This document shows positions 203 to 42,331 of a stretch of DNA of 64,000 nt, piece after piece. This stretch comes from Minisyncoccota bacterium (lineage in GTDB: Bacteria > Patescibacteriota > Minisyncoccia > UBA6257 > 2-01-FULL-56-20), in the NCBI GenBank assembly GCA_041664245.1, contig JBAYLC010000005.1, forward strand, positions 8,695 through 72,694, written 5' to 3'. A program made the translations under genes and the position numbers. Position 1 is the first letter of the stretch. Every line of letters begins with the position of its first letter. The notes beneath the pieces were generated by a model, which worked only from the letters and a program-made list of their open reading frames with translations, was not told the DNA's origin and searched no databases.

Positions 203-1624
203 ATGTTCCAAAAAATTTCTAAATTTTTCTTGTACGCTTCGGTCTTTAGTATTGCCTTAGTCGCCACCTCAACTTTTTTTCCGTTTATAGGCGTTAAATA
301 TTATTTTTTTCGGGTAGTTATCGAACTCGCTTTGCTGTTTTATCTTCTCTACTGGGCTTTTGAAGCCAAAATCAACGAGGTAAAAAATCGGCTCCTAGAA
401 GTGTCTCGCCGACCGCTTTTCATTGCTGTTTCTATTTTCGTTCTCGCCTTTCTTCTGGCTTCAATTTTCGCCCTGAATTCTCACGCCGCTTTCTGGTCTA
501 ATTTTGAAAGAGGAGAAGGGGGATTTCAAATGATCCACTATTACCTTTTCTTTTTTCTCCTAATTATCCAACTCAAAGAATGGAAAGAATGGCGACTCTT
601 ATTTTGGTTGTCAGTAGGTGCCGCCTTCTTAATGGTTCTCTATGGATTCCTTGCTCAAGTAGGTGTTAATGGTTTAATCAGCCCATTGAGGGGAGATACT
701 AGCGGACTTAGCATCTCCGATAGAATTTTTAGTCCCCGTTTCCAGGGTTCCTTGGGCAATCCCGCCTATGTAGCGCCCTATTTACTCTTTACCTTATTTT
801 TTACATCTTATCTTTGGCTCGTAGATAGTAAAAAAACCAAATCCAGTCGTTTCTTAATTTACGGTGGGTTATCGCTTGTATTTCTGCTTTTTTTTATTTT
901 AAGCCAAACTCGCGGCGCGTTTCTTGGCTTAATCGGCGCTATTTTTGCTTTCTTTATCTGTTCTATTATCATCAGCTCCAAACGGCGAAAAATAAATTCC
1001 TACATTCTTCTTGGAATTATCTTAGTCGGCTCTATTTTTATTGTTTTTCGGCACAATCCTATTATTCAAAAACTTCCCGGAAGCCGATTATTGCAAATTG
1101 CTGACACGGGATATGAAACCGACTCTATACGAACTCGGCTTTGGACATGGGGATCCGCTTGGCGGGCATTTAAGGATCGTCCAATTTTTGGCTGGGGGCC
1201 GGAAAATTTCAGCGCCGCCTTCGATAAGCATTTTGATCCACGGCACTTTTCCCCTGAGAAAAATTCCGAAACTTGGTTTGACCGCGCTCATAGTATCGTT
1301 TTTGATTATTTATCAACCACTGGCCTGATCGGTTTTCTAGCGTATTTGTCTATATTTATAATTTTCTTCCGGAACCTTTTCCAAGGAAATAAATTTATTG
1401 AAAAAAATAATATTAACCCCCAGCAATTAGATGCAAATATGCCCCACTTCAAAAAAGCACCTTTATTGACAAGCTTAATGTTTGCAGTTATAATTGGCTA
1501 TCTCATTCAAGGCCTCGCCTTGTTCGATGTATTACCGATTTATCTTAATTTATTTATCGTTTTAGCTTTCGCTTCCTATATTTTTTCCTCAAATAAATTG
1601 AAAGCCAATGAACCCAACAACTAA
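203..1624 (+). CDS. O-antigen ligase/polymerase family (Wzy_C) polytopic membrane protein; candidate ligase, polymerase or PglL-like O-oligosaccharyltransferase
   Basis: About 10-12 hydrophobic helices. Wzy_C-type periplasmic loop (RTRLWTWGSAWRAF...GWGPENF...AHSIVFDYLSTTGLIGF) with the conserved His/Arg pattern of WaaL/PglL. Confidence 0.7.
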   Translation: MFQKISKFFLYASVFSIALVATSTFFPFIGVKYYFFRVVIELALLFYLLYWAFEAKINEVKNRLLEVSRRPLFIAVSIFVLAFLLASIFALNSHAAFWSNFERGEGGFQMIHYYLFFFLLIIQLKEWKEWRLLFWLSVGAAFLMVLYGFLAQVGVNGLISPLRGDTSGLSISDRIFSPRFQGSLGNPAYVAPYLLFTLFFTSYLWLVDSKKTKSSRFLIYGGLSLVFLLFFILSQTRGAFLGLIGAIFAFFICSIIISSKRRKINSYILLGIILVGSIFIVFRHNPIIQKLPGSRLLQIADTGYETDSIRTRLWTWGSAWRAFKDRPIFGWGPENFSAAFDKHFDPRHFSPEKNSETWFDRAHSIVFDYLSTTGLIGFLAYLSIFIIFFRNLFQGNKFIEKNNINPQQLDANMPHFKKAPLLTSLMFAVIIGYLIQGLALFDVLPIYLNLFIVLAFASYIFSSNKLKANEPNN

Positions 1625-2237
1625 AAAAATAATAGCGATTAGTATTAGTTGCGTCGTTATCTGGATGGCTTATTATGGTTCCTACTTACCATTCCAGAAA
1701 TCTCGTAATTTCATCGAGACAATGCGGAATCTGGGTGGTAGTAGTTCTCTATCTGATTTTAAATCTAGAATATCTGGCGTTCTTGATAGGCCTTCTCCAA
1801 TTGGCCAGGAGGAGCTTGTTCGCCAAACTGCCAATTTAATCGCCGGATTCTTCAATCAGCCATCCGCCACTCCTGACGTTATCGCTGATTTGATGGGGTA
1901 CCTTGAGAGCTACTATAAACCAATGATAGATCAAGGGAGTGGAATGAGTTTTGGTCAAGATCTTTATCTTTTGGGCTCGCTCAATGAATTGGCTTTCGTG
2001 AAAACTAATCAAAAAGCCTACTTTGACAAAGCCAAAAGCTATTATTCTCTTGCCCTAGTCGACGGTCCCAAACGGCCCCAAGCGCTTTATGGCATGTTCG
2101 ATATCTATCGTTTAGAAAAAAATGTTGCCGAAGTGAAAACCGTTTCCGATCAAATTCTTAGTCAGTGGCCCAATGATAGTAAGGTCAAAAATGCTCTAGC
2201 TGATTTTTTGAAGCAAATTACCCTAAAGAAAAAATAA
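1608..2237 (+). CDS. hypothetical N-terminally membrane-anchored protein
   Basis: ORF with one N-terminal TM helix. Start overlaps the upstream stop, suggesting translational coupling. No motif recognised. Confidence 0.4.
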
Positions 2238-2244
2238 AATTTTT

Positions 2245-3225
2245 ATGCTGAAGGCTCTAGTTACCGGTGTTACTGGACAAGACGGCTCGTATCTAGCCGA
2301 ATTATTGCTTAGTAAAGGTTACGAAGTCCACGGTGTTATCCGCCGCGCTTCAACCTTCAATACTGCCCGTATCGAGCATATCTATCAAGATCCCCACGAA
2401 GAAAAGCCCCATTTAATTCTTCATTACGGAGATCTTTCGGATGCCAACACGATCCGAAAGTTAATCTATAAAATTCAACCCGACGAAATTTATAATCTTG
2501 GCGCCCAATCCCACGTTCGTGTTTCTTTTGATATTCCTGAATACACTGCCAACATTACTGGTCTTGGCACACTCCGCATGCTTGAAGCTATTAAAGATTT
2601 CGAAGAACATATTGGGAAAAAGGTTAAATTTTACCAAGCTTCTAGCTCGGAAATGTTCGGTGCCACTCCACCGCCCCAAAATGAAGAAACTCCATTTTAT
2701 CCGCGAAGCCCATATGCAATTGCCAAAGTTTTTTCCTACAACACGGTAAGAAATTATCGGGAGGCATATGGCCTGTTTGCCACAAATGGAATTCTATTCA
2801 ATCACGAAAGTCCTCGGCGAGGCGAAACTTTTGTCACTAAAAAAATTACTCGCGGTTTAGCTAGTATAAAAAATGGATCAGCCAAAAAAATTTATCTTGG
2901 TAATCTAGAGGCGAAGCGCGATTGGGGTTACGCTCCTGAATATGTTGAGGCCATGTGGTTAATGATGCAACAGCCAAAACCAGATGACTATGTAATCGGC
3001 ACAGGCGAGAGTCATTCCGTTGAAGAATTTTTAAATGCCGCTTTTTCGTACTGCAACCTTAATTGGCGAGATTATGTAGAAATTGATCCTCGTTATTTTC
3101 GTCCCACAGAAGTTGATAATTTAATTGCCGATCCTAAAAAAGCCAAAGAAAAATTAGGTTGGGAAGCAAAGACTAAATTTAAAGATTTAGTCAAAATAAT
3201 GGTTGACGCTGATATAAAAATTTAA
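2245..3225 (+). CDS. gmd: GDP-mannose 4,6-dehydratase
   Basis: Signature [18 protein letters not shown], extended SDR fold, HYGDLSD and YAIAKV motifs. Confidence 0.95.
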
Positions 3226-3250
3226 CCCTCTGTAATTCAAGATCTAATAG

Positions 3251-3712
3251 ATGAAGCCGTATTCAAGAAAAATACCAACCAGCCTTTTCGAAAAAATTCA
3301 CAAATCTGTTCCGATAGTAACTGTGGATTTAGTTGTAACGAGTGGAAAAAATTTTCTCTTAGTTTTTCGTAAAAATAATCCAGAAGCCCAAACTTGGTAT
3401 TTTCCTGGGGGAAGGTTATTTAAAAACGAGCATTTATTAGATTCAGCAAGGAGAAAATTACGGGAAGAAACTGGATTGTCGGGCAAAAATTATAGAATAC
3501 TAGGAATTCACGAGCACTTTTATAATCCAAAAAAGAGTTATTTCAAGGGTTTTGGATCTCACGCTCTAGCTGTTATATTTAGAGTAGAAGTTAGTAAAAA
3601 AGAAAATATAAAATTAGATTCCCAAAGTCTCGATTTCAGATGGTTTAATAGTGTCGATAAAAATTTTAATCCGTATATTAAAAAATTTTTAAAAATAGCT
3701 AATCTTGGATAG
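3251..3712 (+). CDS. Nudix hydrolase (GDP-mannose mannosyl hydrolase-like, Gmm/WcaH-type)
   Basis: Nudix box GGRLFKNEHLLDSARRKLREETGL. Sits between gmd and fcl, as gmm does in colanic-acid and fucose loci. Confidence 0.7.
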   Translation: MKPYSRKIPTSLFEKIHKSVPIVTVDLVVTSGKNFLLVFRKNNPEAQTWYFPGGRLFKNEHLLDSARRKLREETGLSGKNYRILGIHEHFYNPKKSYFKGFGSHALAVIFRVEVSKKENIKLDSQSLDFRWFNSVDKNFNPYIKKFLKIANLG

Positions 3713-4691
3713 TCGAAATAAGGATTTTATTTTTAGTGATCTAATGGATAAAAATTCTAAAATTTACATAGCCGGGCACCGAGGCCTTGTTGGGTCGGCT
3801 ATTTTAAGGAAGCTTCAGGCCGGCAACTATTCAAACCTGGTCACTCGCGAACATCAAGAACTTGATCTGCTTGACGCAAGAATGACAGCAGATTTTTTTA
3901 AAAAAGAAAAACCAGAATACGTAATCGATGCTGCAGCAAAAGTAGGTGGTATTCACGCAAATAACACCTATCCCGCTGAATTTATTTACAACAACCTCTG
4001 TATCCAAAACAATATTATTCACAGCTCATATCTGGCGAATGTTAAACGTTTGCTTTTCATGGGGAGTGCCTGCATCTATCCGAAAATTTGTCCGCAACCA
4101 ATCAAAGAAGAATACCTATTGACTGGAGCGCTTGAACCGACAAATGAACCTTATGCAATTGCAAAAATCGCGGGGTATGAAATGTGTGATGCATATAATC
4201 GCCAATATGGGACCGATTATTTTTCGGTAATGCCCACCAATCTCTATGGTCCCAACGATCACTTTAACCTTGAGAACTCACACGTGATCCCAGCACTTAT
4301 GCGTAAATTCTATGAGGCAAAAACGAAAGGGAAAAATGAAGTGGTTCTTTGGGGGACTGGAAGTCCTACGCGTGACTTTATGCACTCCGACGATCTCGCC
4401 GATGCCTGTATCTTTCTCATGAATCAGCCATCGCTCTCTCATAGCCTCATTAACATCGGAACCGGCAAGGATATTTCGATTAGGGATCTTGCCGAAACCG
4501 TAAGTAAGGTGAGCGGATTTGAGGGAAAACTCACCTGGGATACCTCAAAGCCAGATGGAACGCCGCGAAGACGCGTTGACACCGAGCGGCTGAACGCTAT
4601 GGGATGGCATCACACCGTAATACTCGAAGACGGACTTAGTTCGACTTATCAGTGGTTTCTTGATAATGTCGCCAATAAAATCAAGGTATAA
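3705..4691 (+). CDS. fcl: GDP-L-fucose synthase (GDP-4-keto-6-deoxymannose 3,5-epimerase/4-reductase)
   Basis: IYIAGHRGLVGSAI N-terminus and YAIAKIAG catalytic motif. Typical Fcl/WcaG length. Confidence 0.9.
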   Translation: MDSRNKDFIFSDLMDKNSKIYIAGHRGLVGSAILRKLQAGNYSNLVTREHQELDLLDARMTADFFKKEKPEYVIDAAAKVGGIHANNTYPAEFIYNNLCIQNNIIHSSYLANVKRLLFMGSACIYPKICPQPIKEEYLLTGALEPTNEPYAIAKIAGYEMCDAYNRQYGTDYFSVMPTNLYGPNDHFNLENSHVIPALMRKFYEAKTKGKNEVVLWGTGSPTRDFMHSDDLADACIFLMNQPSLSHSLINIGTGKDISIRDLAETVSKVSGFEGKLTWDTSKPDGTPRRRVDTERLNAMGWHHTVILEDGLSSTYQWFLDNVANKIKV

Positions 4692-4737: not shown

Positions 4738-5823
4738 ATGAATATTTCTGTAAAAGGAAAAAAAGTCGTAGTGTTTGATACTTTGGGGCCGCATTCCAAG
4801 CAGAATTTATGTTTTGATCCGAGCGTAGCAAAAGAGAAATGGTATCATCACTGTGCTTCTTATTTCTATGAAGAGTGCCAAAAAAAAGGTATTCAACTTA
4901 TTACCACCGATATTTATTTTGCCTTGTCAGAAAAACCAAAGGCTATCTGTATGCGAGAACGCATTGATGTGGACATGAGTACGTCACTCGCCCTACAAAA
5001 ATCCGGGGTGCGGCTTGCGGTTATTAGAAATTCTGAAAATCCGTTATATGCCTGCCGTTTTTTTTGGAACCTCGAAAGGCTTACGAGCTATTTTGATCAT
5101 TCAGTCGTGGTAAAAGGTGTAAAAGATTGGGTATCGCCTAAAAGCCATTTCCATCCGTGGTTTATCCCTCACGCATATTACAGCCAAATTCATGAAGTGC
5201 AATCAGACTTCCGCAAAAAAAAGTTTCTCGTTCTCATTCAACGGAATGCGAGGATACATTGGTTGCGCCGTTTATATGTGTCCGGGTTGAATTTTATAAA
5301 ACCTCTGCCAAATTTCGTAAACCAGGAAGGGTATCTTAATCGGCTAGAAGCCATAAAATATTTCTCTCAATATCCTGATTTTGATTTATATGGAATGTGG
5401 TGGGATAAACCAGTTCGCTATACACGCAAATATGACGAATCTATTCGAAAATCATATCGTGGGGCTGTTGAAGATAAATTCGCATTATTGAAGCAGTACA
5501 AGTTTTCTCTTATATTTGATAATGCTTATTTAGGGGGGATGGTACATGAGAAAATGACTGATTGTCTTTATGCCGGTTCCGTCCCGATTTATTGGGGGGC
5601 GCCAGACATTGCCGATATTTTCCCAGCTAATTGTTTTATTGATTTCAGGAAATTCGGTTGTGATTTTGCCCGCCTTAATGAATATCTACGCGCTATGGAC
5701 GAAAACACCTATAACGACTACATTAAAAATATCAATAAATTTATATCCTCGCCTGCAGCCTACAATCTAAGTCAAGAAAAATACACGGGCGATATGATAA
5801 AAATTTTTGAATCGTATTTTTAA
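4738..5823 (+). CDS. GT10 alpha-1,3-fucosyltransferase
   Basis: YKFSLIFDNAYLGGMVHEKMTDCLYAGSVPIYWGAP matches the FucT motifs YKFxLxFENS...YxTEK...PIYWG of Helicobacter FutA/B. Immediately downstream of the GDP-fucose genes. Confidence 0.8.
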   Translation: MNISVKGKKVVVFDTLGPHSKQNLCFDPSVAKEKWYHHCASYFYEECQKKGIQLITTDIYFALSEKPKAICMRERIDVDMSTSLALQKSGVRLAVIRNSENPLYACRFFWNLERLTSYFDHSVVVKGVKDWVSPKSHFHPWFIPHAYYSQIHEVQSDFRKKKFLVLIQRNARIHWLRRLYVSGLNFIKPLPNFVNQEGYLNRLEAIKYFSQYPDFDLYGMWWDKPVRYTRKYDESIRKSYRGAVEDKFALLKQYKFSLIFDNAYLGGMVHEKMTDCLYAGSVPIYWGAPDIADIFPANCFIDFRKFGCDFARLNEYLRAMDENTYNDYIKNINKFISSPAAYNLSQEKYTGDMIKIFESYF

Positions 5824-5829: not shown

Positions 5830-6774
5830 ATGTCATCTAAAAAAATTCTTATAACCGGCGGGGCGGGCTATATTGGATCGATATTGGTTCCGGAGTTATT
5901 ACGAGCGGGGCACGAGGTAACCGTTATTGATAATTTTACCTATAACCAGTCCTCGCTTTTGGATGTTTGTAATTTTCAAACCCTTACCCTGATTCGCGGT
6001 GACGCTCGTGATGAAAAAATAATCTCCCAGCACATTAAAGAAAAGGATTTTATTATTCCGCTTGCTTGCGTTGTTGGTGCTCCTGCTTGTAATAGAGACC
6101 CAGTTGCCGCTCGCACCATTAATCTTGAAGCAGTAGAACTTATTCTAAAACTTCGCGAAAAATGTCAAAAAATTATTTTTCCCAATACCAATAGCGGCTA
6201 TGGTCGGATGGCCGAAGGTGTCGCATTTTGTGATGAAACAAGTACTCTCGATCCAATCTCGCTTTACGGCAAACTAAAAGTGCAAGCGGAAAAAGAACTG
6301 CTCGAAGCGGGAAACGCGATCACTTTACGACTCGCTACCGTCTTCGGGATTAGTCCTCGTATGCGCCTCGATCTTCTTGTGAATGATTTTGTTTATCGCG
6401 CCGTTAATGATGGGGCCGTTGTATTATTCGAGCCTCATTTCAAACGTAATTATATTCACATCAGAGATGTGGCGGGTGCCTTTATGCATGCGATGGAAAA
6501 TTTTGAAAAAATGAAAAACGAACCCTATAATGTCGGTCTTTCAGACGCTAACTTAAGTAAGATTGAACTTTGTGAGGAAATAAAAAAGCAAATTCCCAAC
6601 TTTGTTTTCATAGAATCAAAAATAGGAGAAGATCCTGATAAACGGAATTATATTGTAAGTAATACTAAAATTGAAAATATGGGTTTCAAGCCCCGAATAT
6701 CGCTTACCGAGGGAATTTCTGAGCTGATCAAGGGTTATCAAATTATTAAAAGAAATAACTTCTCTAATCTCTAG
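5830..6774 (+). CDS. NAD-dependent sugar epimerase/dehydratase (extended SDR)
   Basis: ILITGGAGYIGS Rossmann motif and extended-SDR length. Confidence 0.8.
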   Translation: MSSKKILITGGAGYIGSILVPELLRAGHEVTVIDNFTYNQSSLLDVCNFQTLTLIRGDARDEKIISQHIKEKDFIIPLACVVGAPACNRDPVAARTINLEAVELILKLREKCQKIIFPNTNSGYGRMAEGVAFCDETSTLDPISLYGKLKVQAEKELLEAGNAITLRLATVFGISPRMRLDLLVNDFVYRAVNDGAVVLFEPHFKRNYIHIRDVAGAFMHAMENFEKMKNEPYNVGLSDANLSKIELCEEIKKQIPNFVFIESKIGEDPDKRNYIVSNTKIENMGFKPRISLTEGISELIKGYQIIKRNNFSNL

Positions 6775-6786
6775 TTTCTATTTTCC

Positions 6787-6815
6787 TTGACAACAATAGC
6801 TCGGAGAATTATATT
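6787..6815 (+). promoter_or_regulatory. sigma70-type promoter (TTGACA-17 bp-TATATT) upstream of the radical SAM gene
   Basis: Read directly: TTGACA at 6787-6792, 17-nt spacer, TATATT at 6810-6815. GAAGGAG RBS before ATG 6881. Confidence 0.6.
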
Positions 6816-6880
6816 GCTCCTAGGTCTTTGATACCTTAAATTCGTCAATTCAAATAGTATCTCATAGAAGGAGTTGTAGA

Positions 6881-8392
6881 ATGAGTCGTTTAGACGCAGT
6901 TTTTGTTATCCCTGGCAACCTCACTCAGGTTTACCAAGTTTTTGCTAAAGAACACGCCATCGAACCGCCTATTTTCGCCCTCTGGATAGCGTCTCATCTA
7001 GAGAGCAAAGGGTATAGTTTCGAATTTATTGATGCCGTGCCGTCCAATCTTTTTCCAGAAGAAGTTGCTGCTGAAGTCGTTCATCTCAACCCAAGACTTG
7101 TTATTGTACCTGTCTATGGTTCTCAACCTTCTGCTTCAACTCAAAACATGCCAGCCGCGCGAAGAACGTGCCAAGCAATAAAAGATCTCAAGCCAGATCA
7201 AAAAATCCTCGTCACTGGCACCCATCCCGCGGCATTACCAGAGCGAACTCTTAGGGAAGAACCAGTGGATTTTGTTTGCGACGGTGAAGGTCCCACAACT
7301 CTTATCGAAATTCTCGAGGTCTTGAGAAATGGGGATGATGTTTCCAATGTGGGAAGTCTTTGGTACTGGGAAAGTGGGAAACCCAAATACACTCATCCGG
7401 CGCGGAATGTTACCGAACTTGAGTTTGATCCGGACATCTGGCGATTTCTTCCGATGAGTCGCTACATTGCCCACGATTGGCATACTGGTTATCGAGATTT
7501 TGCGTCTCGCAAGCCCTACGCTTCTATCCTAACTACGCTTGGTTGTCCTTTCCGATGTTCATTCTGCTGCATTCAAACTCCGTTTAGAGCGGGTGAGGCA
7601 GCTATAGGGCGTAATCCAAAATCGAACTCTTACCGTTTCTGGTCGCCGCAGGTCATCATCAAAACCATAGAAGTGCTCGTTAGAAAGTATGGTATGGAGC
7701 ATATCAAGATTCACGATGAGTTATTCGTCTTGAATCAAAGGCATGTGAGTGCCATTTGCGCTTTAATCAAAGAACGCTTCAACGATGATTTGAATATTTG
7801 GGCTTACTCTCGTGCCGACACAGCCCAGCCTAAGTCTTTAGACATCCTAAGGGCGGCCGGGATTCGTTGGCTAGCTGTTGGTATTGAGCGCGACGGTAAA
7901 AACAAATCTTTTTCTGGCGAGGATATACTCCGAGTTAGAGAAATGATTAAGGATGCTGGTATTAAATTAGCGGCGAACTACATTTTTGGACTGCCCGGTG
8001 ATACCAAGGATAGCATGCAGGCTACACTAGATATGGCTCTGGCAATAAATTCGCCATTCGCTAATTTCTATTGTGCTATGGCTTACCCCGGTTCCGAACT
8101 CTATGAGGAAGCCGTAAGAAGAAATTTACCATTGCCAGATAGTCCTGGTGGTCCCGGTTGGATTGGTTACTCTCAGCACGCCTACGAAGCCACGCCTCTT
8201 CCGACCGATTCTCTTTCCGCCGCAGACATTCTTCGTTTTAGGGATGAAGCCTGGAGGAGATACTACACCAACCCAAAGTTTCTTTCCATGCTTCAGGATT
8301 GGTATGGTGAAAACGGCGAAGAAGCAGAGAGAAACATAAAAAAAATGACCTCTCTATCTCCCCTCCGCCGAGCGCTTTTCGAAAAAACATGA
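6881..8392 (+). CDS. B12-binding-domain radical SAM enzyme
   Basis: N-terminal cobalamin-binding Rossmann-like domain. Cys cluster CPFRCSFCC (CxxxCxxC plus an extra C), then a TIM-barrel-length region. Class-B radical SAM architecture. Confidence 0.8.
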   Translation: MSRLDAVFVIPGNLTQVYQVFAKEHAIEPPIFALWIASHLESKGYSFEFIDAVPSNLFPEEVAAEVVHLNPRLVIVPVYGSQPSASTQNMPAARRTCQAIKDLKPDQKILVTGTHPAALPERTLREEPVDFVCDGEGPTTLIEILEVLRNGDDVSNVGSLWYWESGKPKYTHPARNVTELEFDPDIWRFLPMSRYIAHDWHTGYRDFASRKPYASILTTLGCPFRCSFCCIQTPFRAGEAAIGRNPKSNSYRFWSPQVIIKTIEVLVRKYGMEHIKIHDELFVLNQRHVSAICALIKERFNDDLNIWAYSRADTAQPKSLDILRAAGIRWLAVGIERDGKNKSFSGEDILRVREMIKDAGIKLAANYIFGLPGDTKDSMQATLDMALAINSPFANFYCAMAYPGSELYEEAVRRNLPLPDSPGGPGWIGYSQHAYEATPLPTDSLSAADILRFRDEAWRRYYTNPKFLSMLQDWYGENGEEAERNIKKMTSLSPLRRALFEKT

Positions 8393-8415: not shown

Positions 8416-8955
8416 CTAACGAGGGCTTTTTTCGGAGTCCTCGTTTTTTATTTTATGAATTATTTTTGTAGTTGATATTTTTTCAAATTCAGGCGGGCAG
8501 TACCTATCAAGGATAACAAGTTCGACCCCTGTCTTTTGAGCTATTATTTTTCGATAAGGAATATCTCCTGCGTCCTCGTTGATCACGTAAATATCAGGCT
8601 TGAGTTTGTTCAAGGCCACTTCTATAGACCAAAGGACATGATTATCTCCCGGTATTATCTCATCCATAAAACAATAATCTACTGGCCTTAAGGAATCCAC
8701 CATCTTTAAACGAACATGCTGATTTAAAATAGGGCGGTGGTTACCTTTATTACTTCTAATTGCAGCATCACACCCCACCATAACCACTAGTATGTCTCCG
8801 CGCATTTTGCAATCTTCAAAAAAAAGCACATGCCCGGCATGAGTGACATCAAAACTACCAGAGCAAAAAACAATTTTTTGATCCCGGTGTCTGTTTCTTA
8901 TAATCGCTACATCTTCTAATTTCGTGACCGCCATTAGTGAAAGAATATAACACAA
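8416..8955 (-). CDS. cytidylyltransferase-like nucleotidyltransferase (TagD / HldC family)
   Basis: SGSFDVTHAGHVLFF (HxGH) and C-terminal ISTTKI motif. The only minus-strand gene in the first 17 kb. Confidence 0.7.
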   Translation of the reverse strand: MCYILSLMAVTKLEDVAIIRNRHRDQKIVFCSGSFDVTHAGHVLFFEDCKMRGDILVVMVGCDAAIRSNKGNHRPILNQHVRLKMVDSLRPVDYCFMDEIIPGDNHVLWSIEVALNKLKPDIYVINEDAGDIPYRKIIAQKTGVELVILDRYCPPEFEKISTTKIIHKIKNEDSEKSPR

Positions 8956-33584: not shown

Positions 33585-34331
33585 CTAACGGCCACGATTA
33601 TTGAGACTGTCTATAACCGCGAGAATATCTACTTCTAGCCAGCTACAAAATACTCGGTAAGCGCCAGTTTGGTAGAGGGGTATGATCGCGGAAGGACAAT
33701 CGTAAACTGTCATTCCGACTACTGGGGATTTAGCCGCAACCCCAGCGGCAAGACCACGAAGTGAATCTTCGATGACCACCTGTTCCGCCGGGTCAATTTC
33801 CATTCGCCTTGCCGTTTCCAAGAAAATATCCGGCTCGGGTTTGTGCCGTATCCTACTGCCTTCGTCAGCCAAGACGATTTGGTTTCCGTCAAAATACTCA
33901 TCGAATCCGATGGCTTTCCAGTAGATCCAGAACTCTTCTGACAGAGTCGACGATCCGATCGTTACCTTTAGTTCCGCTTCTCTCAACCTCTTCAAGGAAT
34001 TAAGAAATCCCGGTCTTGGTGCGATCTGTCGTTCTCCAGAAGCAATTTGCTGAACAAATTGTTTGAAATGCATGCTTGATCTGGTCAAAATTTGCTCGGC
34101 GTTCAACTGAGGGGTAATCCCTCTCCTTTTCATCAGATCAAAAATTTGTTCAGCGATGAGTTTTCCCGGACCGCCCGATAAATTTGGAATCAAATCGACC
34201 GCTTCTTGCACGGTTAACTCAATTCCAGCTTCCTTGGCCGCCATACGATGAGCAAGATGATGGCCGTCTTTTTCGAAATCAATGACTGGTCCCTCAAAAT
34301 CAACCGCCACTCCTCTAATCCTACGATTCAT
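33585..34331 (-). CDS. HAD-superfamily hydrolase (beta-phosphoglucomutase / phosphatase-like)
   Basis: VAVDFEGPVIDFE N-terminal DxD-type motif. IEDS near the C-terminus. Confidence 0.65.
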   Translation of the reverse strand: MNRRIRGVAVDFEGPVIDFEKDGHHLAHRMAAKEAGIELTVQEAVDLIPNLSGGPGKLIAEQIFDLMKRRGITPQLNAEQILTRSSMHFKQFVQQIASGERQIAPRPGFLNSLKRLREAELKVTIGSSTLSEEFWIYWKAIGFDEYFDGNQIVLADEGSRIRHKPEPDIFLETARRMEIDPAEQVVIEDSLRGLAAGVAAKSPVVGMTVYDCPSAIIPLYQTGAYRVFCSWLEVDILAVIDSLNNRGR

Positions 34332-34346
34332 ATTCCCTCTCTTTCG

Positions 34347-34784
34347 TTATGATTTCTGTTTTATTGTCAGTAATAGCACTGATGCCACACCCATCGAGTA
34401 ACCCAATCCTTGTCTCCAAGTAAAGGGTTCTTGTCCTGTGGTGATTTTAATGGTTGTCACCACTATAATCTGGGTGATGATAACGACGATATACATCGTC
34501 GCTAAACTCCCAACCGGATCGGCACTGTTTCTAGCCAGAGCGATCATTTTCTGAAAAAAAATCTGACCAACTCCGTTTATTAGCGCCGTGCCTATTCCTA
34601 AAGCCAGTAAGACTGAAATAGGAAAATTGAACTGGCGATAAAATGGCAGAAAAACTACAGTTGTTCCCAAAGAGAGAACAATTGCTGCCGTCTGCCAATT
34701 CAGACCCGTCCGAGACATTAGGAACGGCCACGTTGCGAAACACGCAGCCGCCGCCACCGGAAAAAGAAATGTCTTTAACTCCAA
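34347..34784 (-). CDS. small 4-TM membrane protein (DMT/SMR-like; possibly GtrA/ArnE-F-like lipid-linked sugar flippase subunit)
   Basis: 145 aa with four hydrophobic helices. Confidence 0.35.
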   Translation of the reverse strand: MELKTFLFPVAAAACFATWPFLMSRTGLNWQTAAIVLSLGTTVVFLPFYRQFNFPISVLLALGIGTALINGVGQIFFQKMIALARNSADPVGSLATMYIVVIITQIIVVTTIKITTGQEPFTWRQGLGYSMGVASVLLLTIKQKS

Positions 34785-34914
34785 CTCATCCTCTCTTTCT
34801 GTATTTGCGTTGTAAATAAAACTGGCTACATTGTAATAGATTATTCAAAATTTGTCAAAATAAAAAGGAGGATTCATTCCTGAATCCTCCCAACGTTTCT
34901 AAGTTCGACGATCT

Positions 34915-35844
34915 CTATCGGATTTTTTCTAGAATCTTCCAGAGTTTTTCCGCCTGCTGCGAATCTCTTGTGGCGATGAGCGCAGTGCGGCGAACATTAG
35001 TTTTTGTTCTCCTATACGAAATCTCGTCAAGATTTTCGAGGCGAATAATTCTCCTAGCTTGCCGATGAACCTCGTGGCGATAAAGAATTACTTTTCCGCC
35101 AAGCGCGTTAATAATCGCCATTCCGGGAGTTATGTCCCAGATCGCTTGGTGGTCTTGAATTACTCCATCGGCGATTCCGCAGGCAATCATCGCGAGGGCC
35201 ATCGATCCCGAATTAGCTGTAAGCAAGCGTCTGGTTTTAGTAGCGAGCTCGTTTTTGACCTGATTAAACAAGGGAAGTAAATCAAGATCGGCTCCCCAAT
35301 ACCAGACTCGTGTTTGATCTTGTTTCGGTTCTCGCTCGATTCCGCCGTCTTCCTCCAGCCACAAAACCCCTTTCCCAATTTCTCCAATCACCAGGGTGCC
35401 GCCTCTTATCTCCGGCATATAAACTACACCGGCTATAAGTTTGTCGTCTTCCCAAACCGCAATCGCTACTGACCAATCCGGCAAGCCGAGAGCTTGCATA
35501 GCGGTACCATCTATAGAATCCACATCAAAACGCAGGCCGTCAAAAGAAAAAACATAATTCGGATCATTTCTCCCCGTCGAGAGAAGAAGATTTGAGTATC
35601 TCTCTGTTTTTTCCTCTGCTAGAAACTTCGCTTCGGGATGGAGAGCGGAAAGAAGTAGAATTATCAACTCCTGAGCGGCAACGTCCGTAGGAGTAACTAT
35701 CGCCCTGAAGTTCTCCTTACTTCTTGTACTTCTCGTGTTCTTCGGAAGGGAGCCGCCTCTGATTATTTTTCCTACAATAAGCGCTACTTGAGCAGCACTC
35801 ACCACAGGAAATGAGAATCGTTGCAGACCAATAAGGGCTTTCAT
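34915..35844 (-). CDS. inositol-monophosphatase-family phosphatase
   Basis: FDVDSIDGT and WDITPG motifs of the IMPase/CysQ family. Confidence 0.75.
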   Translation of the reverse strand: MKALIGLQRFSFPVVSAAQVALIVGKIIRGGSLPKNTRSTRSKENFRAIVTPTDVAAQELIILLLSALHPEAKFLAEEKTERYSNLLLSTGRNDPNYVFSFDGLRFDVDSIDGTAMQALGLPDWSVAIAVWEDDKLIAGVVYMPEIRGGTLVIGEIGKGVLWLEEDGGIEREPKQDQTRVWYWGADLDLLPLFNQVKNELATKTRRLLTANSGSMALAMIACGIADGVIQDHQAIWDITPGMAIINALGGKVILYRHEVHRQARRIIRLENLDEISYRRTKTNVRRTALIATRDSQQAEKLWKILEKIR

Positions 35845-35845
35845 C

Positions 35846-36766
35846 TCATATCCCTTCGCCGCGCAAATGAGCGGCAGTAATCTCGTGCGGCCACGGGACC
35901 GTCATCGGCTGTTCTCCTAGAAGTCCAGAATCTTCTGTCGCGCCCCAGTTATTCAGAATTGGCACATAAAATCCATAAACAAGACTTCCAAGTTCGGTGA
36001 TTTTGAAGCTCATCTTGTATTCTGGCGGCAATCCTCCGGGATCGCTTCGAAAACGTTCGGCGTAGAGCCGAATTATTTTGAGAACAATGTTGGCGAATTG
36101 GACTCGTGACGCCTGCCCAATGTTTATCGTCTCTTTGGGAACAAAAAAACATTGGCCGGCTCGATATCCGCCTGCGAAAACTCGACAAGTCGAATCCTCG
36201 AAAATCAGTAACTCTGGTCGCTGCCCTTGTTCATCGAGCCACTTTCTGACATCGCCTCGGTTCATTTCGATTCCATAACCGAGACTTCCTGGTTTTGCCA
36301 ACTTAGCCGGAGCTGGTGGCTCCAAGATATGGAAATGTAGATGAGGAATGTTCTGTCCGGCAAGAGGACCGATATGAACGGTAAGTGATAGAAATCTCTT
36401 TACCTCTCCCGCAACCATATCCACAATTTTCGACGCCACCATTAAAACTTCCCCAAAAGATCCAGCCCCGCCCAACTCATACAAACGATTATTATCCCAA
36501 CATGAATTAGGAATAATTAAGTCGTGTATTGGATAGGGGGTAAATTGATTTTTCATCACCGCCCAGGTTCCGTTTGCCCCCGGGTAGAGAGTTTTTTCTT
36601 CTGCATTCCATTTCGTGCAAAACGGGCAACTCGCCGAATCGGCTACTGGTAGTCGCTGTTGCCAGGATCGCCTAAGCTTTATTTCCGTTCTGGTTCCTCC
36701 AAAGAAAATTCCTGGACCTCCGCCCGGAATTCCCTCAATCTTCATCGGGAAAACCGATTCAGTCAT
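35846..36766 (-). CDS. GalT-like HIT-family sugar-phosphate nucleotidyltransferase/phosphorylase
   Basis: Zn motif CPFCTKW and HIT motif NIPHLHFHILEP. Stop and start abut the IMPase gene. Confidence 0.6.
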   Translation of the reverse strand: MTESVFPMKIEGIPGGGPGIFFGGTRTEIKLRRSWQQRLPVADSASCPFCTKWNAEEKTLYPGANGTWAVMKNQFTPYPIHDLIIPNSCWDNNRLYELGGAGSFGEVLMVASKIVDMVAGEVKRFLSLTVHIGPLAGQNIPHLHFHILEPPAPAKLAKPGSLGYGIEMNRGDVRKWLDEQGQRPELLIFEDSTCRVFAGGYRAGQCFFVPKETINIGQASRVQFANIVLKIIRLYAERFRSDPGGLPPEYKMSFKITELGSLVYGFYVPILNNWGATEDSGLLGEQPMTVPWPHEITAAHLRGEGI

Positions 36767-36884: not shown

Positions 36885-37736
36885 ATGGCTAATCCTAAAA
36901 TCAGCGTCCTAATCGCCACCTATAACCGTTCTAATTTAATCAGCCGCGCCATTCAAAGTGTCATTGATCAAAATTTCAAAAACTGGGAACTTCTCATCGC
37001 CGACGACGGCTCTACTGATGACACCGAAAAAATTGTCCGTAGCTTTGCGATTCAGGATGAGCGTGTCAAACATCTAAAAAGTGAGCACTTTGGCCGCATC
37101 GCCAAAATTTCCAATTTCGGCCTTCGCCACGCGAAAGGGGAATATATTGCCATCTTGGATGATGATGATCATTGGTGTGATCCCGAAAAATTGAACAAGC
37201 AAATAAAATTTTTAGACGAAAATCCTGATTATGCCGGTTGCGGCGGCGGCTTTATCGTTGTTGATGAAAATCAAAAAGTTAAGATGAAATTTTTCAAACC
37301 GGAAAAAGACGAAGAGATCAAAAAGAATTTTTTAATCGCTAACCCAATGGCCAACTCAACCACAATGTTTCGGTTGTCGGTCGCTAAAAAAGTTGAGCTC
37401 TATGATGAAGCCCTGCCTCAATTCGCCGACTGGGATTTTTGGCTGAAAATGGGAGTTGCGGGAAAGCTTTATAATTTCCCCGAATACTTTTCCTATTATC
37501 TGATGTGGGATAAAAGTATGTCATTCAGCAGGCAGAAAGAAGCTTCTTATTCGGCTCTTATAATTATTCCTCGCTACAAAAAAAAATATCCAAGCTATCT
37601 TAAGGCTAAAACTCTGGTATTAATTTATTATCTCTACACTCATTTACCAGAATTTATTAAAAAATTTTTGAACCCAATTTTATCTAATCTTAAAAAAATA
37701 ATCTTTTCTGGCCGATCTGCTCACCCCTTTGAATAA
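36885..37736 (+). CDS. GT2 glycosyltransferase
   Basis: ISVLIATYNR...ELLIADDGSTDDT...DDDD. Confidence 0.85.
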   Translation: MANPKISVLIATYNRSNLISRAIQSVIDQNFKNWELLIADDGSTDDTEKIVRSFAIQDERVKHLKSEHFGRIAKISNFGLRHAKGEYIAILDDDDHWCDPEKLNKQIKFLDENPDYAGCGGGFIVVDENQKVKMKFFKPEKDEEIKKNFLIANPMANSTTMFRLSVAKKVELYDEALPQFADWDFWLKMGVAGKLYNFPEYFSYYLMWDKSMSFSRQKEASYSALIIIPRYKKKYPSYLKAKTLVLIYYLYTHLPEFIKKFLNPILSNLKKIIFSGRSAHPFE

Positions 37737-37757: not shown

Positions 37758-39245
37758 CTATATTTTAATTTTTAATATTGCGAGAGAATCTTTAAGTAAG
37801 GGTTCTTTAGTAAAATAAAGAACTCCGAAATACACAAAAATAGACGCCCCGATATTCATCAAAAGGTTAGTTTTTAAAATTAATAATACAAAAGTTACAA
37901 TCGCCATTACCAAAGTAGCTATTACTATATTTTTTAAAACCGGCACAACCCTGAAATAATTTATTCTCTTCATTTTATTCCAAAGATAAGCATTGCTCGC
38001 AGAGATAGCAATCAATGTCGCTATGGCCGATCCAGTAATTCCAAATCTAGGAATTAAGATTAAATCCAATAAAACATTTAAAAATCCTCCTATTATCGCA
38101 TTTATAATCAAACTCTTTTGATTGTTATAAGAAAATATTGCGCTACTTAAAATAACCGCCGGGAAATTGATCATCAAGGTGAGAATGAGAATTTGGAATG
38201 ATAGAGTGGCTCCAGAATATGCGCTGCCGAAAAGGAAACTTATAATATTTCCCCCAAGAATAACCCCCCCGATGGATATAGGAATTGCAACAAGCATGAC
38301 TGTCCCCAGTGTGTTTTCCATAACCCTGCGCATTTTTGTATTATCCTTTCCGGCTATTCTAGAAAAAAGAGGTAAGACGCTTACCGAAATAACGCTCGGA
38401 ATAATGTAAAAAATTTGAATTATCCTGTCTGCCGCTGAGTAAAGCCCCACATCTTTCGTGGTCAACAATCCTCCGATTAATAAAATGTCAGTATTTATCA
38501 TCAAAATTCCTAACACACCCGAGATAGCAAATGGCCACGCTGTAGATAAGATTGGCTTAACCAACTTAAAACAAAAATCTGAAAAAAGCTGGCGAAGTTT
38601 ATCTCTAAGAATAAAAGCTGTTGCCATCACGCCTAGTCCAGTGCCAAGCGCGTACGCGAATGCGAATGATTTTACGCTCGGCCTTAACGAAAGAAAAATG
38701 AAGCCAAAAACAACTATTGCAACATTTGTTAATAAAAATAAACCAGCTTCCTTTTCCATTTTTTCATAGGCTCTATTCAGGGCAAAGCCAAATTCCCGGA
38801 AGCTATCAAAAATTACTATAAAAACTACAATCGGCAATATTTCTTTTACTCCTTGAACACTAATAAAATGAGGGACGATAAATATTATTAAAAAAGCTCC
38901 AAGTATCAAAAATACAGTTTTTATAGTGAAAGAAGTAGAAAGTATACGTGATCTCTCGGCTGGGTCTTCGGTTTTTGTGGATTCTCTTATTAGAATAGAA
39001 TTAATTCCGAAATCAATAAAAATTGTGAAAAAAGCAGTTATTGTAACTGCGTAAGAAAAAATTCCCCACTTCTCCACTCCTAAAACCCTTGCGGCGTAGA
39101 TTATTATTATTGCCTTAATAAGTCTCCCGCCAACATTACTAACTGACAACCAAAAACTATTTTTTACTATGGTTTGCCGGGCGTTTTGATTTGTGAATAA
39201 AAATCCCTTTATTTTTTTTATCATTTGTTGTATAGTGACTTCCAA
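37758..39245 (-). CDS. Wzx-type oligosaccharide flippase (MOP superfamily)
   Basis: 495 aa with about 12-14 TM helices and the polysaccharide-biosynthesis-protein N-terminal pattern. Confidence 0.8.
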   Translation of the reverse strand: MEVTIQQMIKKIKGFLFTNQNARQTIVKNSFWLSVSNVGGRLIKAIIIIYAARVLGVEKWGIFSYAVTITAFFTIFIDFGINSILIRESTKTEDPAERSRILSTSFTIKTVFLILGAFLIIFIVPHFISVQGVKEILPIVVFIVIFDSFREFGFALNRAYEKMEKEAGLFLLTNVAIVVFGFIFLSLRPSVKSFAFAYALGTGLGVMATAFILRDKLRQLFSDFCFKLVKPILSTAWPFAISGVLGILMINTDILLIGGLLTTKDVGLYSAADRIIQIFYIIPSVISVSVLPLFSRIAGKDNTKMRRVMENTLGTVMLVAIPISIGGVILGGNIISFLFGSAYSGATLSFQILILTLMINFPAVILSSAIFSYNNQKSLIINAIIGGFLNVLLDLILIPRFGITGSAIATLIAISASNAYLWNKMKRINYFRVVPVLKNIVIATLVMAIVTFVLLILKTNLLMNIGASIFVYFGVLYFTKEPLLKDSLAILKIKI

Positions 39246-39947
39246 ATGAAAGCTGTCATTTTAGCCGGCGGGCTTGGAACTCGGCTCCGACCTATCACCT
39301 ACGAGATCCCAAAACCACTCCTTACGGTAAAAAAAGAGCCCATTCTAAATCATCTCATCAAGCTTTTCAAACGCCACCATATCTCCGAGGTCGGAGTTTT
39401 GGTTAGCCGTCAGCACGAAACCGACTTCGCTAGATGGCGAAAAACCTGGGCTAATGAACTTCCTTACGAGAAGATTAGCATATTTCATGAGGAGAAACCA
39501 AGCGGCACTTTTGGTTGGTTAAAGCACTTGCGCGACTGGTTGGGCGAAGAAAAGTTTATTCTCTCGAACGGAGACGAGCTTAAGGATTTTGATCTCACGG
39601 CACTTAAAAATTTCCACGAAACAAATAAACCGGTGGCTACTATCGCTCTTGTAAAAGTTCTAAATCCCAACGAATATGGCGTTCCGATTTTAGACGGACA
39701 CCATATTAAAGAATTTTTAGAAAAACCCGAAAATCCTCCTTCTAATTTTATTAACTCTGGTCTCTATATTCTTGAGCCGGAAATATTCGATTACGCTGAT
39801 TTGTCGAAAGAATTTCTCATGATTGAAAATGATGTTTTCCCAAATGTCGCCGTTGCTGGTAAGCTTCATGGTTATAAATTTGAAAACAGTCGCTGGTATG
39901 ATTGTGGTAACCTTGAGCGTTGGGAAAAAGCAATCAAGGAGTGGTAA
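39246..39947 (+). CDS. sugar-1-phosphate nucleotidyltransferase
   Basis: KAVILAGGLGTRLRPIT. Track ORF starts at 39225. Confidence 0.75.
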   Translation: MKAVILAGGLGTRLRPITYEIPKPLLTVKKEPILNHLIKLFKRHHISEVGVLVSRQHETDFARWRKTWANELPYEKISIFHEEKPSGTFGWLKHLRDWLGEEKFILSNGDELKDFDLTALKNFHETNKPVATIALVKVLNPNEYGVPILDGHHIKEFLEKPENPPSNFINSGLYILEPEIFDYADLSKEFLMIENDVFPNVAVAGKLHGYKFENSRWYDCGNLERWEKAIKEW

Positions 39948-39962
39948 TAATCCTTTATTTAA

Positions 39963-40967
39963 ATGAAAATTTTTATAACCGGCGCCAGTGGCTATATCGG
40001 TTCCCTCCTAATTAATTCCTGGCTTAGTAATCCCGAAATCGAAAAAATAATCGCTCTCGATGTTAAATCGCCGCGTTTTTTGTGGAACGAGAATAATCCC
40101 AAGATTCACTTTATTCAAAAAAATCTTGCCGACATAAACATAGAAGAAGAATTAAAATCTTTCGGCTCGGTCGACGTTGTCATCCACGCCGCTTATTTTA
40201 TCCGGACGCCTTATTTCAAAAAAGCCCTTATCTATCAACGGTATTCAAATTTTGACGGCGCCAAAAATATTTTTGAATTTTGTTTTAAAAATAACATAAA
40301 AAAATTAATTCATTTCGGCACCGTTGCTTCCTATGGTGCCCGTTTGGAAAATTCTCTAGATAAAAAATTCAGAGAATCTGACAGCCTTGAGGAGGAGGCG
40401 ATTGCTTATGGCTGTGACAAAAAAATTATTGAAGAAAATTTAAGCCAATTTTTTGAAGATCATAAACCTGCAACTGATGTTGTTGTTTTGCGTCTTGGTT
40501 CAGTTTCGGGTCCGTTTTTGATAAACACCGTAAAAAAAATTGGCCTGCTTAGTTTTTTTCGTGGGCTTTCACCGTTTATTCCAATAACCGGCGAACTCTC
40601 CGCTAGGCAATATATTCACGAAGACGATGTCGTCTCCGCTATTAATTTCTTGATTAGAAAAGGATCTTCCCAAAATGAAATTAATATTTACAATCTCGCC
40701 GCCGATTGTTATTTAACTTTCCGTGAAATTGCCTCCCGGCTTAAAAAGAAAACTATTAAAATTCCTTTTTCTTTGGCAAATCTAGTCTTTAGAATATTTT
40801 GGAATCTAAGTTGCGGTTTGGTGCCCACGCCGCCTAACGTAATCAATTCCTACACCTTTCCAATTATTGTTGATAATTCAAAACTAATTGCCGCTGGTTT
40901 TAAATATAAATTTAACTGCCAAGAATCTCTCCTCGGTTCGGCTGGAAAATTCGCCAACCCCCTCTAG
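39963..40967 (+). CDS. NAD-dependent epimerase/dehydratase
   Basis: IFITGASGYIGS. Confidence 0.75.
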   Translation: MKIFITGASGYIGSLLINSWLSNPEIEKIIALDVKSPRFLWNENNPKIHFIQKNLADINIEEELKSFGSVDVVIHAAYFIRTPYFKKALIYQRYSNFDGAKNIFEFCFKNNIKKLIHFGTVASYGARLENSLDKKFRESDSLEEEAIAYGCDKKIIEENLSQFFEDHKPATDVVVLRLGSVSGPFLINTVKKIGLLSFFRGLSPFIPITGELSARQYIHEDDVVSAINFLIRKGSSQNEINIYNLAADCYLTFREIASRLKKKTIKIPFSLANLVFRIFWNLSCGLVPTPPNVINSYTFPIIVDNSKLIAAGFKYKFNCQESLLGSAGKFANPL

Positions 40968-40996
40968 ATTCCAATCCCCAATCTCTATTAGCCAGT

Positions 40997-42331
40997 TTAT
41001 TTTCCCGCAAAAGTCAGAATAGTTTTCAGGGTTTTTAGAACTATCAATAAATCCAGAACGAACGATCGGTTTTTCACGTAATAAATATCATAAGCTAGTC
41101 TTTCTATTGCTTCGTCCACCGAGCTGCCATATTTGTCCTGCACTTGCGCCCAGCCGGTTAATCCTGGTGCGATCACGGTTCTAATTTGATAATGAGGTAT
41201 TTTTTCCTTTAATAATTTATAAAAATCAACGAAATCCGCTCTTGGCCCGACGAAAGATAATTCTCCTCTTAGTATATTTATCACCTGCGGCAATTCATCC
41301 GCCCGCACTTTCCGAAGAATTTTTCCGATTCTAAAAACTCTTCCGTCATTTTCTACAACTCCGAACTCGGTGCCAACTTTTTTAAATTCATCGCTTCCCA
41401 CGCTCATCGTTCTAAATTTAAAAAGGGTAAAAATTTCTTCTTTTCTGCCCACTCTCTTATTGAGAAAAAAAGCCGGCCCTTTTGAGCTCGCCTTTATAAG
41501 TAGGATAATAAGCGGCCAAATCCAAATCGTAATTATTAAAACGATAAATGCCAATATTGAATCCTCAATTCTCTTAGCTATAATGTACAATCCGTTCCGT
41601 GGCCTTATCTTATCCAAAAACCAACTTTCCTCAAGCTCATCGATGGAGACTTTTCCCATAATCGCTTCATAAAATTCAGAAAAAGATGAGATCTCAACCC
41701 CCCTTAAAAGCTGTTTATATATTCTCTCTGCCATATCGCGATCGCTCTTTAAACTTGCTGGAATAACTAAAACATCATATCCGCCGTTACCAATTAAACT
41801 TTTTATTACTTCCAAGTCTAAATCATGAACCCAATGTAAAACCTTATATCCAAGCTGCGGATTATCAGTAAGGCAACTCACTAATTCTTCCGCATCTCTG
41901 CCTTTTCCAATAATACAAACCCCCATAAGCGGACTTGATTGTAGATAATGTTTGCACAAAAATTCCCTGAAAGAAAAAATAAGCACCCCGAAAATAATAA
42001 TCAAAAGAACTAAAATGGTTTTTGGCGCAATATCGAAATAGGGGAGTAAATAAAAAAACAAAATCGCCAAAACTGAGAATAAAATTATTCCAGTTAAAAA
42101 AAGTTTTACTCGCTGCATTCGTCGTCGGAATTTTCTAAGGTCATACAGGCCCACTATATAAAAAACAATCAGACCGAATAGAAGCAGAAAACTAAAAGGC
42201 CAAAGATGAAGCTTAAAAAGTTGCCAATTGAAACTCTCTGTATTCCTTATCAGGAGGGATAGGAAAAGGGCAAAGTAAAAAGAAAGCACGTCGAATATAA
42301 AGAATGAAAGTTTTTTTGTAGTCGTTTTCAT
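40997..42331 (-). CDS. undecaprenyl-phosphate sugar phosphotransferase (WbaP/PssY-type initiating enzyme)
   Basis: N-terminal TM bundle. C-terminal Bac_transf block RPLIIL...KRVGRKEEIFTLFKFRTM...DELPQVINILRGELSFVGPR. Confidence 0.9.
   Translation of the reverse strand: MKTTTKKLSFFIFDVLSFYFALFLSLLIRNTESFNWQLFKLHLWPFSFLLLFGLIVFYIVGLYDLRKFRRRMQRVKLFLTGIILFSVLAILFFYLLPYFDIAPKTILVLLIIIFGVLIFSFREFLCKHYLQSSPLMGVCIIGKGRDAEELVSCLTDNPQLGYKVLHWVHDLDLEVIKSLIGNGGYDVLVIPASLKSDRDMAERIYKQLLRGVEISSFSEFYEAIMGKVSIDELEESWFLDKIRPRNGLYIIAKRIEDSILAFIVLIITIWIWPLIILLIKASSKGPAFFLNKRVGRKEEIFTLFKFRTMSVGSDEFKKVGTEFGVVENDGRVFRIGKILRKVRADELPQVINILRGELSFVGPRADFVDFYKLLKEKIPHYQIRTVIAPGLTGWAQVQDKYGSSVDEAIERLAYDIYYVKNRSFVLDLLIVLKTLKTILTFAGK

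Follow-up and report, generated by a model that had tools for sequence, protein, structure and literature searches.

The closest described counterparts of the locus considered here are Wzy_C proteins combined with a tetratricopeptide repeat (TPR) element. In WsfB of Paenibacillus alvei and PglL of Neisseria meningitidis, the TPRs are C-terminal, as in the fused homologs presented below; those of WsaB from Geobacillus stearothermophilus reside in a separate small neighbour, WsaA (168 aa), like the split form found here (PMC2943079). The S-layer glycan (slg) clusters harbor their O-oligosaccharyltransferase (O-OTase) within or beside a glycan-synthesis cluster with a Bac_transf-type primer, as here, and the cluster of G. 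stearothermophilus exports by an ABC transporter (PMC2943079), whereas the present locus uses Wzx. WsaA/WsaB and WsfB belong to monoderm hosts, as, presumably, does the present pair. TacL of Streptococcus pneumoniae is a Wzy_C protein of a monoderm that delivers a polymer built on undecaprenyl diphosphate (Und-PP) to an acceptor other than lipopolysaccharide (LPS), a glucosyl-diacylglycerol-type glycolipid (PMC5727136). The Wzy_C superfamily and the Wzy_C-plus-TPR architectural type are therefore already known. The DNA analysed here, termed the window, is a 64,000-nucleotide stretch of contig JBAYLC010000005.1 from a Minisyncoccota bacterium. It encodes a Wzy_C/TPR pair, which is tentatively read as an O-OTase for surface proteins of the WsaA/WsaB-WsfB-PglL type. 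What is new is a module conserved across the Candidate Phyla Radiation (CPR), the evidence of fusion, the fixed linkage to rny, and the quantified hypervariability of the adjoining DNA; a preliminary description of the window had missed the TPR partner, the rny-linked core module and the downstream hypervariability. The module and its left flank are as follows:

1-192, + strand: 3' end of rny (RNase Y), the conserved left flank; its in-frame translation ends at 192
203-1624, + strand: WaaL-fold Wzy_C transferase, 473 aa, about 12 transmembrane (TM) helices; candidate catalytic residues R237, R312 and H363
1608-2237, + strand: TPR partner, 209 aa, predicted to be extracytoplasmic and anchored in the membrane; shares 17 nt with the end of the Wzy_C ORF

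All open reading frames (ORFs) of the window of at least 100 aa were scanned with Pfam and NCBIfam. The Wzy_C domain (PF04932) covers residues 224-382 of the enzyme (E 1.4e-20; 74 bits versus a cut-off of 31.7), which places it in the Wzy_C superfamily. Its approximately 12 TM helices and large outer loop are superposable on WaaL, a lipid-acceptor ligase and the closest solved fold. The family profile matches just two solved proteins, WaaL 7tpg (34.6 bits) and 9rmk (31.2 bits), the latter a 610-aa "oligosaccharyltransferase" whose residue numbering agrees with that given for N. meningitidis PglL. WaaL of Cupriavidus metallidurans (7tpg/7tpj) is only 15-17% identical to the window enzyme, has no TPR partner, and uses lipid A-core as acceptor, which a CPR host would not be expected to make. 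PglL, from a diderm, reaches only 31 bits with the family profile; it nevertheless shares the Wzy_C core, a P-x-x-G-x-G motif and an aligned Arg/Arg/His set with the window enzyme, in which its Q178 and N180 are N186 and A188. R237, R312 and H363 align to R224, R298 and H349 of PglL and to R215, R288 and H338 of Escherichia coli WaaL. Over 38 family members, R312 and H363 are invariant and R237 nearly so. With the WaaL topology assumed, which the Lys/Arg-rich inner loops support, invariant columns amount to 42 of 149 in outer loops versus 0 of 51 in inner loops. The H363 loop and the TPR domain would both lie on the outer face, because four TM helices separate them.

The partner possesses a single N-terminal TM segment and no Pfam match at E 0.001; a profile built from 30 homologs hits consensus TPR proteins (7obi, E 1e-9). 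Unlike WsaA, it lies downstream of the enzyme and carries its own TM anchor. Its gene overlaps that of the enzyme and is translationally coupled to it. Relatives were collected by scanning GTDB species representatives with the family alignment, which gave 269; locus counts rest on the best 80, their gene order being derived from tblastn of window proteins, and neighbor counts on the readable loci among these 80 (74 for the partner, 72 for RNase Y and Gmd). The partner is found directly 3' of the Wzy_C gene in 74 of 74 loci. Among the related species loci the two genes are fused in one and separate in all others. In homologs of the Wzy_C protein that are 664-695 aa long, the C-terminal third corresponds to the partner sequence, and a search of a library of 1.84 billion representative proteins (cluster representatives) with the family profile returned 2,746 representatives at E <= 1e-30. 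Among the best 150, 82 have at least 590 aa, and 58 of these 82 match the partner profile over its full length at their C-terminus. The enzyme and its partner are thus a Rosetta-stone pair, the fused form being commoner across the wider family. Fused homologs include P0012, and the fused structural model has a pLDDT of 87.9. A mirror-tree-style correlation of the identities to the window of Wzy_C, partner and RNase Y gave rho 0.14-0.17, which is not significant; the comparison is uninformative, as the loci all lie about equally far from the window.

Some genomes carry a tandem second Wzy_C-plus-partner pair, or additional divergent Wzy_C genes without partner, the latter in or near the variable part in L073, L080 and L081 (related loci are numbered with the prefix L). 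These second-copy and extra-Wzy_C sites are L080 1471-5300, L026 178-2900, L073 2147-3280 and 13807-15141, and L081 7979-8986; they point to module diversification or to separate polymerases. A perfect 12/12 sigma-70 consensus (TTGACA, 17 nt, TATAAT) is also present at 1466-1494 (+), within the 3'-terminal part of the Wzy_C gene and about 110 nt ahead of the partner start. This site might serve as an internal promoter driving the partner and the island; promoter-like sites in the window do not exceed chance (33 found versus 28 expected).

The module has a fixed position. On JGI contig Ga0376277_0000610 (182,822 bp), which contains the window in reverse, a gene with RNase_Y_N, KH and HD domains ends 10 nt before Wzy_C; RNase Y, listed in the preliminary description as window content, is present there as its 3' end, the gene being almost entirely outside. 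The order in related loci is SBP5, a holin-like gene, iPGM, rny, Wzy_C and partner, with RNase Y immediately upstream in 65 of 72. The partner is directly followed by Gmd, on the same strand, in 44 of 72, and housekeeping genes alone are conserved near the module across related loci. The module also persists where glycan genes are locally absent: downstream of the partner, L043, L048 and L049 have dihydroorotate dehydrogenase and, after it, DsbA or a sortase. The DsbA homolog of L043 stands about 2 kb past the partner, with no glycan genes between, and L048 encodes a sortase bearing a peptidoglycan-binding domain. Accordingly, the Wzy_C gene forms one half of a conserved core module that a recombination-prone glycan locus usually adjoins. 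A Wzy_C protein is indeed encoded at 203-1624, as first described, but its gene is not the far end of the island, because it belongs to an rny-linked core pair with variable content beside it.

Two further loci deserve mention. In L018, a large serine recombinase (6142-7791, -) is located just 3' of the module and the usual glycan genes are missing, which is consistent with an insertion or replacement hot spot at the module. In L085, a fused homolog occurs on an unrelated contig, also among glycan genes; it is adjoined by DUF374 and Kdo_hydroxy (KdoO-like) genes (10651-12338, -), of a kind normally tied to LPS inner-core biology, and YfhO and heptose genes are present too. Monoderms may not be the only hosts of the wider fused family.

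Downstream of the module, gene content changes almost completely from one locus to the next. In the 51 loci with at least 8 kb (8-10 kb) beyond the module, 486 downstream ORFs fall into 290 families, of which 246 are confined to one locus and two occur in at least half of the loci; the median Jaccard similarity of downstream gene content is 0.056. Most loci share Gmd and Fcl. Across loci, the enzyme has a median identity of 48% and the partner one of 44%. Because the enzyme and its outer face are conserved beside changing sets of glycosyltransferases, the pattern is that of a terminal ligase or oligosaccharyltransferase rather than of a repeat-unit polymerase. A relaxed donor specificity together with a constant acceptor, as we infer, fits such conservation.

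The host is, on sequence grounds, a member of the CPR (Paceibacterota). The 473-aa product of 203-1624 is identical to the NCBI entry [quoted passage not shown]. The best 80 related loci come from metagenome-assembled genomes (MAGs) only, labeled mostly Patescibacteria, Paceibacterota, Liptonbacteria, Parcubacteria, Minisyncoccia or Saccharibacteria, with a few labeled just "bacterium". The CPR has been placed within a monoderm clade (bioRxiv 10.1101/2021.05.31.446380). These data bear out the monoderm or CPR-like host proposed in the preliminary description, as well as its argument on LPS: a lipid A-core ligase role is very unlikely because the host belongs to the CPR, treated as monoderm, and this reading was discarded on host taxonomy. 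The Pfam and NCBIfam scans detected no lpx or kdt gene among the approximately 62 genes of the window, and the 8 kb past its right end hold nothing relevant among lpx, LCP, S-layer or pilin genes.

The remainder of the 203-42331 block and its right flank contain:

2245-4691, + strand: GDP-L-fucose block, with Gmd (534 bits versus a cut-off of 415), a NUDIX hydrolase in between, and an Fcl-type synthase (482 versus 500, slightly below), from NCBIfam/Pfam
4738-5823, + strand: GT10-like (fucosyl)transferase (Glyco_transf_10, E 2.4e-10)
5830-8392, + strand: NAD-dependent epimerase/dehydratase and a B12-binding radical SAM enzyme (6881-8392), a probable methyltransferase
8416-8955, - strand: cytidylyl/adenylyltransferase-like protein (best match RfaE domain II, below cut-off)
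9190-13842, + strand: sugar tailoring genes, namely SDR, aldo-keto reductase, DegT aminotransferase, and a split alpha/beta pair of a thiamine diphosphate (TPP)-dependent E1
13852-15568, + strand: heptose set 1, HddA-like GHMP kinase and HddC-like nucleotidyltransferase (best matches, below cut-offs)
15640-16890, + strand: GT4 glycosyltransferase
17037-19800, mixed strands: SDR (+), NDP-hexose C-methyltransferase (17868-19145, -), GmhA-like SIS isomerase (+)
19849-25608, + strand: glycosyltransferase core, with GT4 (19849-21033), FkbM methyltransferase (21030-21806), GT2 (21836-22849), Glyco_trans_1_2 (22979-24025), a 235-aa protein of no firm family (24028-24735; weak Methyltransf_11 match only, E 0.016), and GT2 (24736-25608)
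25632-33535, + strand: epimerase, GHMP kinase 2, NDP-sugar dehydrogenase, SDR, GFO oxidoreductase, transaldolase, SIS, GmhB-like phosphatase and nucleotidyltransferase, a mixture of uronic/keto sugar genes and heptose set 2
33585-36766, - strand: HAD hydrolase, a 145-aa protein with three TM segments, IMPase-like phosphatase, HIT-domain protein
36885-37736, + strand: GT2 glycosyltransferase
37758-39245, - strand: Wzx/MOP flippase (Polysacc_synt, E 1.8e-33; 14 hydrophobic segments)
39225-40967, + strand: sugar-1-phosphate nucleotidyltransferase and epimerase
40997-42331, - strand: priming polyprenyl-phosphate glycosyl-1-phosphate transferase (Bac_transf, E 1.8e-53; TIGR03025, 301.7 bits versus 295.55)
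42463-43164, + strand: DsbA-like thioredoxin, right flank of the island

As a glycan locus, the island is an ordinary one of the Wzx type: a polyprenyl-phosphate primer, cytoplasmic glycosyltransferases and an MOP flippase are found together. The inventory of the preliminary description holds in nearly all respects. The contiguous block, the initiating phosphotransferase, the Wzx flippase and exactly seven glycosyltransferases are recovered in the Pfam and NCBIfam matches, as are its nucleotide-sugar pathways (GDP-fucose, NDP-sugar dehydrogenase, and heptose-like sets, whose genes score below cut-offs). Three of the four methyltransferases that it counted are firm (6881-8392, 17868-19145 and 21030-21806); the fourth, 24028-24735, has the weak match given above. 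The NDP-sugar dehydrogenase and the transaldolase each exceed their cut-offs. No second Wzy-like membrane protein, Wzz/polysaccharide co-polymerase (PCP) or LCP protein was seen in the island or the rest of the window, by Pfam scans and hydrophobic segments.

Several features of the island concern its chemistry. The GmhA-, HddA-, GmhB- and HddC-like heptose genes are doubled, being best matches that all remain under the equivalog cut-offs; with the copies at 13852-15568, 19192-19800, 26656-27642 and 30854-33535, there are two each of GHMP kinases, SIS isomerases and nucleotidyltransferases. The doubling, along with the dedicated transaldolase, hints at two different heptose derivatives. The putative GDP-heptose route recalls S-layer glycan biosynthesis in Aneurinibacillus. 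The TPP E1 pair (12684-13842), the C-methyltransferase (17868-19145) and the B12-radical SAM enzyme share this one glycan locus, which suggests C-branched and C-methylated sugars, an unusual chemistry for a surface glycan. A strong terminator-like hairpin (8418-8445; 12-bp stem and T-run) separates the convergent radical SAM and cytidylyltransferase-like genes and would divide the island into at least two transcription units. The 145-aa protein (34347-34784, -), with its three hydrophobic segments, has no family match.

In the mechanism proposed, the locus would have two parts, a two-gene module after rny (203-1624 and 1608-2237), whose partner is taken to be a single-pass membrane protein with its TPR domain facing outward, and a hypervariable Wzx-dependent assembly line (2245-42331). 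The Bac_transf enzyme would prime undecaprenyl phosphate, on which the seven glycosyltransferases and the tailoring enzymes would assemble a heteroglycan at the cytoplasmic face, likely comprising fucose, heptose, uronic or keto-amino, C-branched and methylated sugars. Once the lipid-linked glycan is flipped by Wzx, R237 and R312 would bind the Und-PP donor, while H363, in the large outer loop, would activate the acceptor hydroxyl; the whole glycan would be moved en bloc, its structure mattering little. The TPR partner would present the acceptor, most likely a Ser, Thr or Tyr residue on a surface protein. Gene content, the WaaL fold, the conserved residues, the conservation and fusion of the module and the variability of the island are observed directly, whereas the topology, promiscuity towards donors, the identity of the acceptor and all catalytic steps are deduced.

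Protein O-glycosylation is ranked first because the Wzy_C-plus-TPR architecture matches WsaA/WsaB, WsfB and PglL, and because a conserved module stands beside variable glycan genes. The obligate TPR partner, a feature of WsaA/WsaB, WsfB and PglL as well, makes the O-OTase reading stronger than the preliminary description could tell, and the relaxed glycan specificity of PglL would explain conservation beside a variable locus. Knockout of wsfB reportedly abolishes S-layer glycosylation. A number of observations weigh against this assignment. WsaB and WsfB are themselves termed "predicted" O-OTases (PMC2943079), and the likeness to them is one of architecture. TPR domains are generic scaffolds. 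The profile comparison called for in the preliminary description returned Wzy_C above threshold, whereas PglL_A (PF15864), which flanks Wzy_C as a marker of the PglL type (PMC3643930), was not detected; neither it nor Wzy_C_2 was reported in Pfam rescans with the E-value limit raised to 5, at which HMMER still drops most matches above about 0.1. The only NCBIfam match of the enzyme is sub-threshold (TIGR03097, 51.5 bits versus a cut-off of 188). As for acceptors, no such protein was identified: the window has no S-layer or SLH Pfam match, its prepilin motif scan was negative, and it holds no S-layer, pilin or sortase-substrate gene beside the module, in which it differs from the slg systems. 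The literature searches, which covered O-antigen ligases and glycosylation in Patescibacteria, Parcubacteria and the CPR, found no experiments on any CPR member and no relevant paper, the single one containing both terms being silent on this Wzy_C family. Finally, a glycolipid ligase fits donor promiscuity and a conserved acceptor equally well, and sequence cannot separate ligase from O-OTase.

Such a ligase, of the TacL type and the leading alternative, would move the flipped Und-PP glycan to a lipid anchor, such as a membrane glycolipid, yielding not a glycoprotein but a lipoglycan, the functional analogue of LPS in monoderms. The preliminary description left a choice between polymerase and O-OTase, of which the latter is reasonable, and omitted this monoderm precedent. 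TacL, which has the Wzy_C domain alone in common with the window enzyme, is needed for teichoic acid chains on a glycolipid anchor, and its mechanism has been proposed as WaaL-like inverting (PMC5727136). All features of the module but the TPR domain fit equally well: WaaL, the closest solved fold, takes a lipid acceptor, WaaL-type ligases likewise stay conserved beside variable glycan genes, and the conserved outer-face residues are at the membrane interface. The TPR domain, however, makes this alternative less likely, TacL (397 aa) and WaaL (7tpg_B, about 403-413 aa) being too short for a fused C-terminal TPR, while an obligate or fused one is documented for O-OTase-type relatives (PMC2943079). 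The Pfam scans of the window also showed no glycolipid-synthase gene. A dedicated, conserved anchor lipid is moreover uncertain, given that the CPR is generally held to be without de novo lipid synthesis. A Wzy polymerase would instead build a polymer from the flipped repeat units, either capsule-like or of the secondary cell wall, with the TPR protein as co-polymerase or scaffold and an LCP protein encoded elsewhere attaching the product to peptidoglycan. The island is otherwise a complete Wzx-dependent set with no other polytopic Wzy candidate, the enzyme has a weak EpsG match (E 9.6e-4), the depositors of 7tpg use the term "polymerase/ligase", and Gmd/Fcl, present in most loci, could supply a shared sugar at the polymerisation site that would permit a conserved polymerase. 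Repeat-unit polymerases, however, normally vary in step with the glycan. In the present loci, the median identity of the enzyme is about 48% and its position is fixed, versus 246 of 290 locus-specific downstream families, and the module is retained where adjacent glycan genes are absent. Wzz/PCP, CpsC/D and LCP are absent from the window scans, no NCBIfam polymerase model matches, and certain genomes (L073) possess further, divergent Wzy_C genes within or close to the variable part, all of which makes polymerisation unlikely. A housekeeping role in the envelope apart from the island, for instance modification of a peptidoglycan precursor, with adjacency due to a recombination hot spot, would account for the rny-linked core module of L043, L048 and L049, kept without local glycan genes. 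It is improbable in view of Gmd following directly on the same strand in most loci, of the fused homolog of L085, embedded in glycan genes on a different contig, and of the stop/start overlaps and short gaps that suggest co-transcription with the island.

The broader proposition that a WaaL-fold/TPR O-OTase is general in Paceibacteria and fused relatives, loading variable glycans on S-layer, pilus or lipoprotein and so producing a strain-specific coat, is possible but doubtful. If true, episymbionts would bear a serotype-like coat governing host attachment and phage susceptibility. The CPR makes up a large share of bacterial diversity; its members are attached to other cells and mostly uncultured, and hardly anything is known of how their surface is constructed and diversified. 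The generic annotations "O-antigen ligase family protein" and "hypothetical protein" become a defined two-component module. The 203-2237 segment is a clonable target for protein O-glycosylation or lipoglycan formation in the CPR, and the module is a marker locus for strain typing and for phage/host selection in metagenomes.

Beyond the island, the Ser/Thr-rich product of 60749-62329 and the lipoproteins nearby had been put forward as natural acceptors, a suggestion that was not upheld. This unannotated protein has 16% Ser+Thr versus a window median of 11%, with one Ser/Thr-dense patch; its gene, separated from the island by 18 kb that include housekeeping genes, shows no linkage to the module in other loci. 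The nearby candidates show nothing beyond mild Ser/Thr enrichment, with housekeeping genes in between. The CPR-style four-helix-bundle gene noted previously is present at 54560-54937 (+) as a "23S rRNA intervening sequence protein" (PF05635, E 1.5e-28), with homologs near the module in L027 and L059. The ThyX gene at 51275-52957 (+) encodes 560 aa, about twice the usual length, with two Thy1 stretches, and could represent a flavin-dependent thymidylate synthase that arose by internal duplication or fusion. Right of the island, 1.1 kb (43164-44297) is without long ORF and without Rfam or tRNA match; it includes a 57-aa ORF (43331-43504) with two CxxC pairs, zinc-ribbon-like in look. A JGI-called gene of 578 aa with no Pfam match begins at 62912 (+) and crosses the right end of the window (>64000); it is followed on the contig by glpX, an aldolase gene and an Amidase_2 gene.

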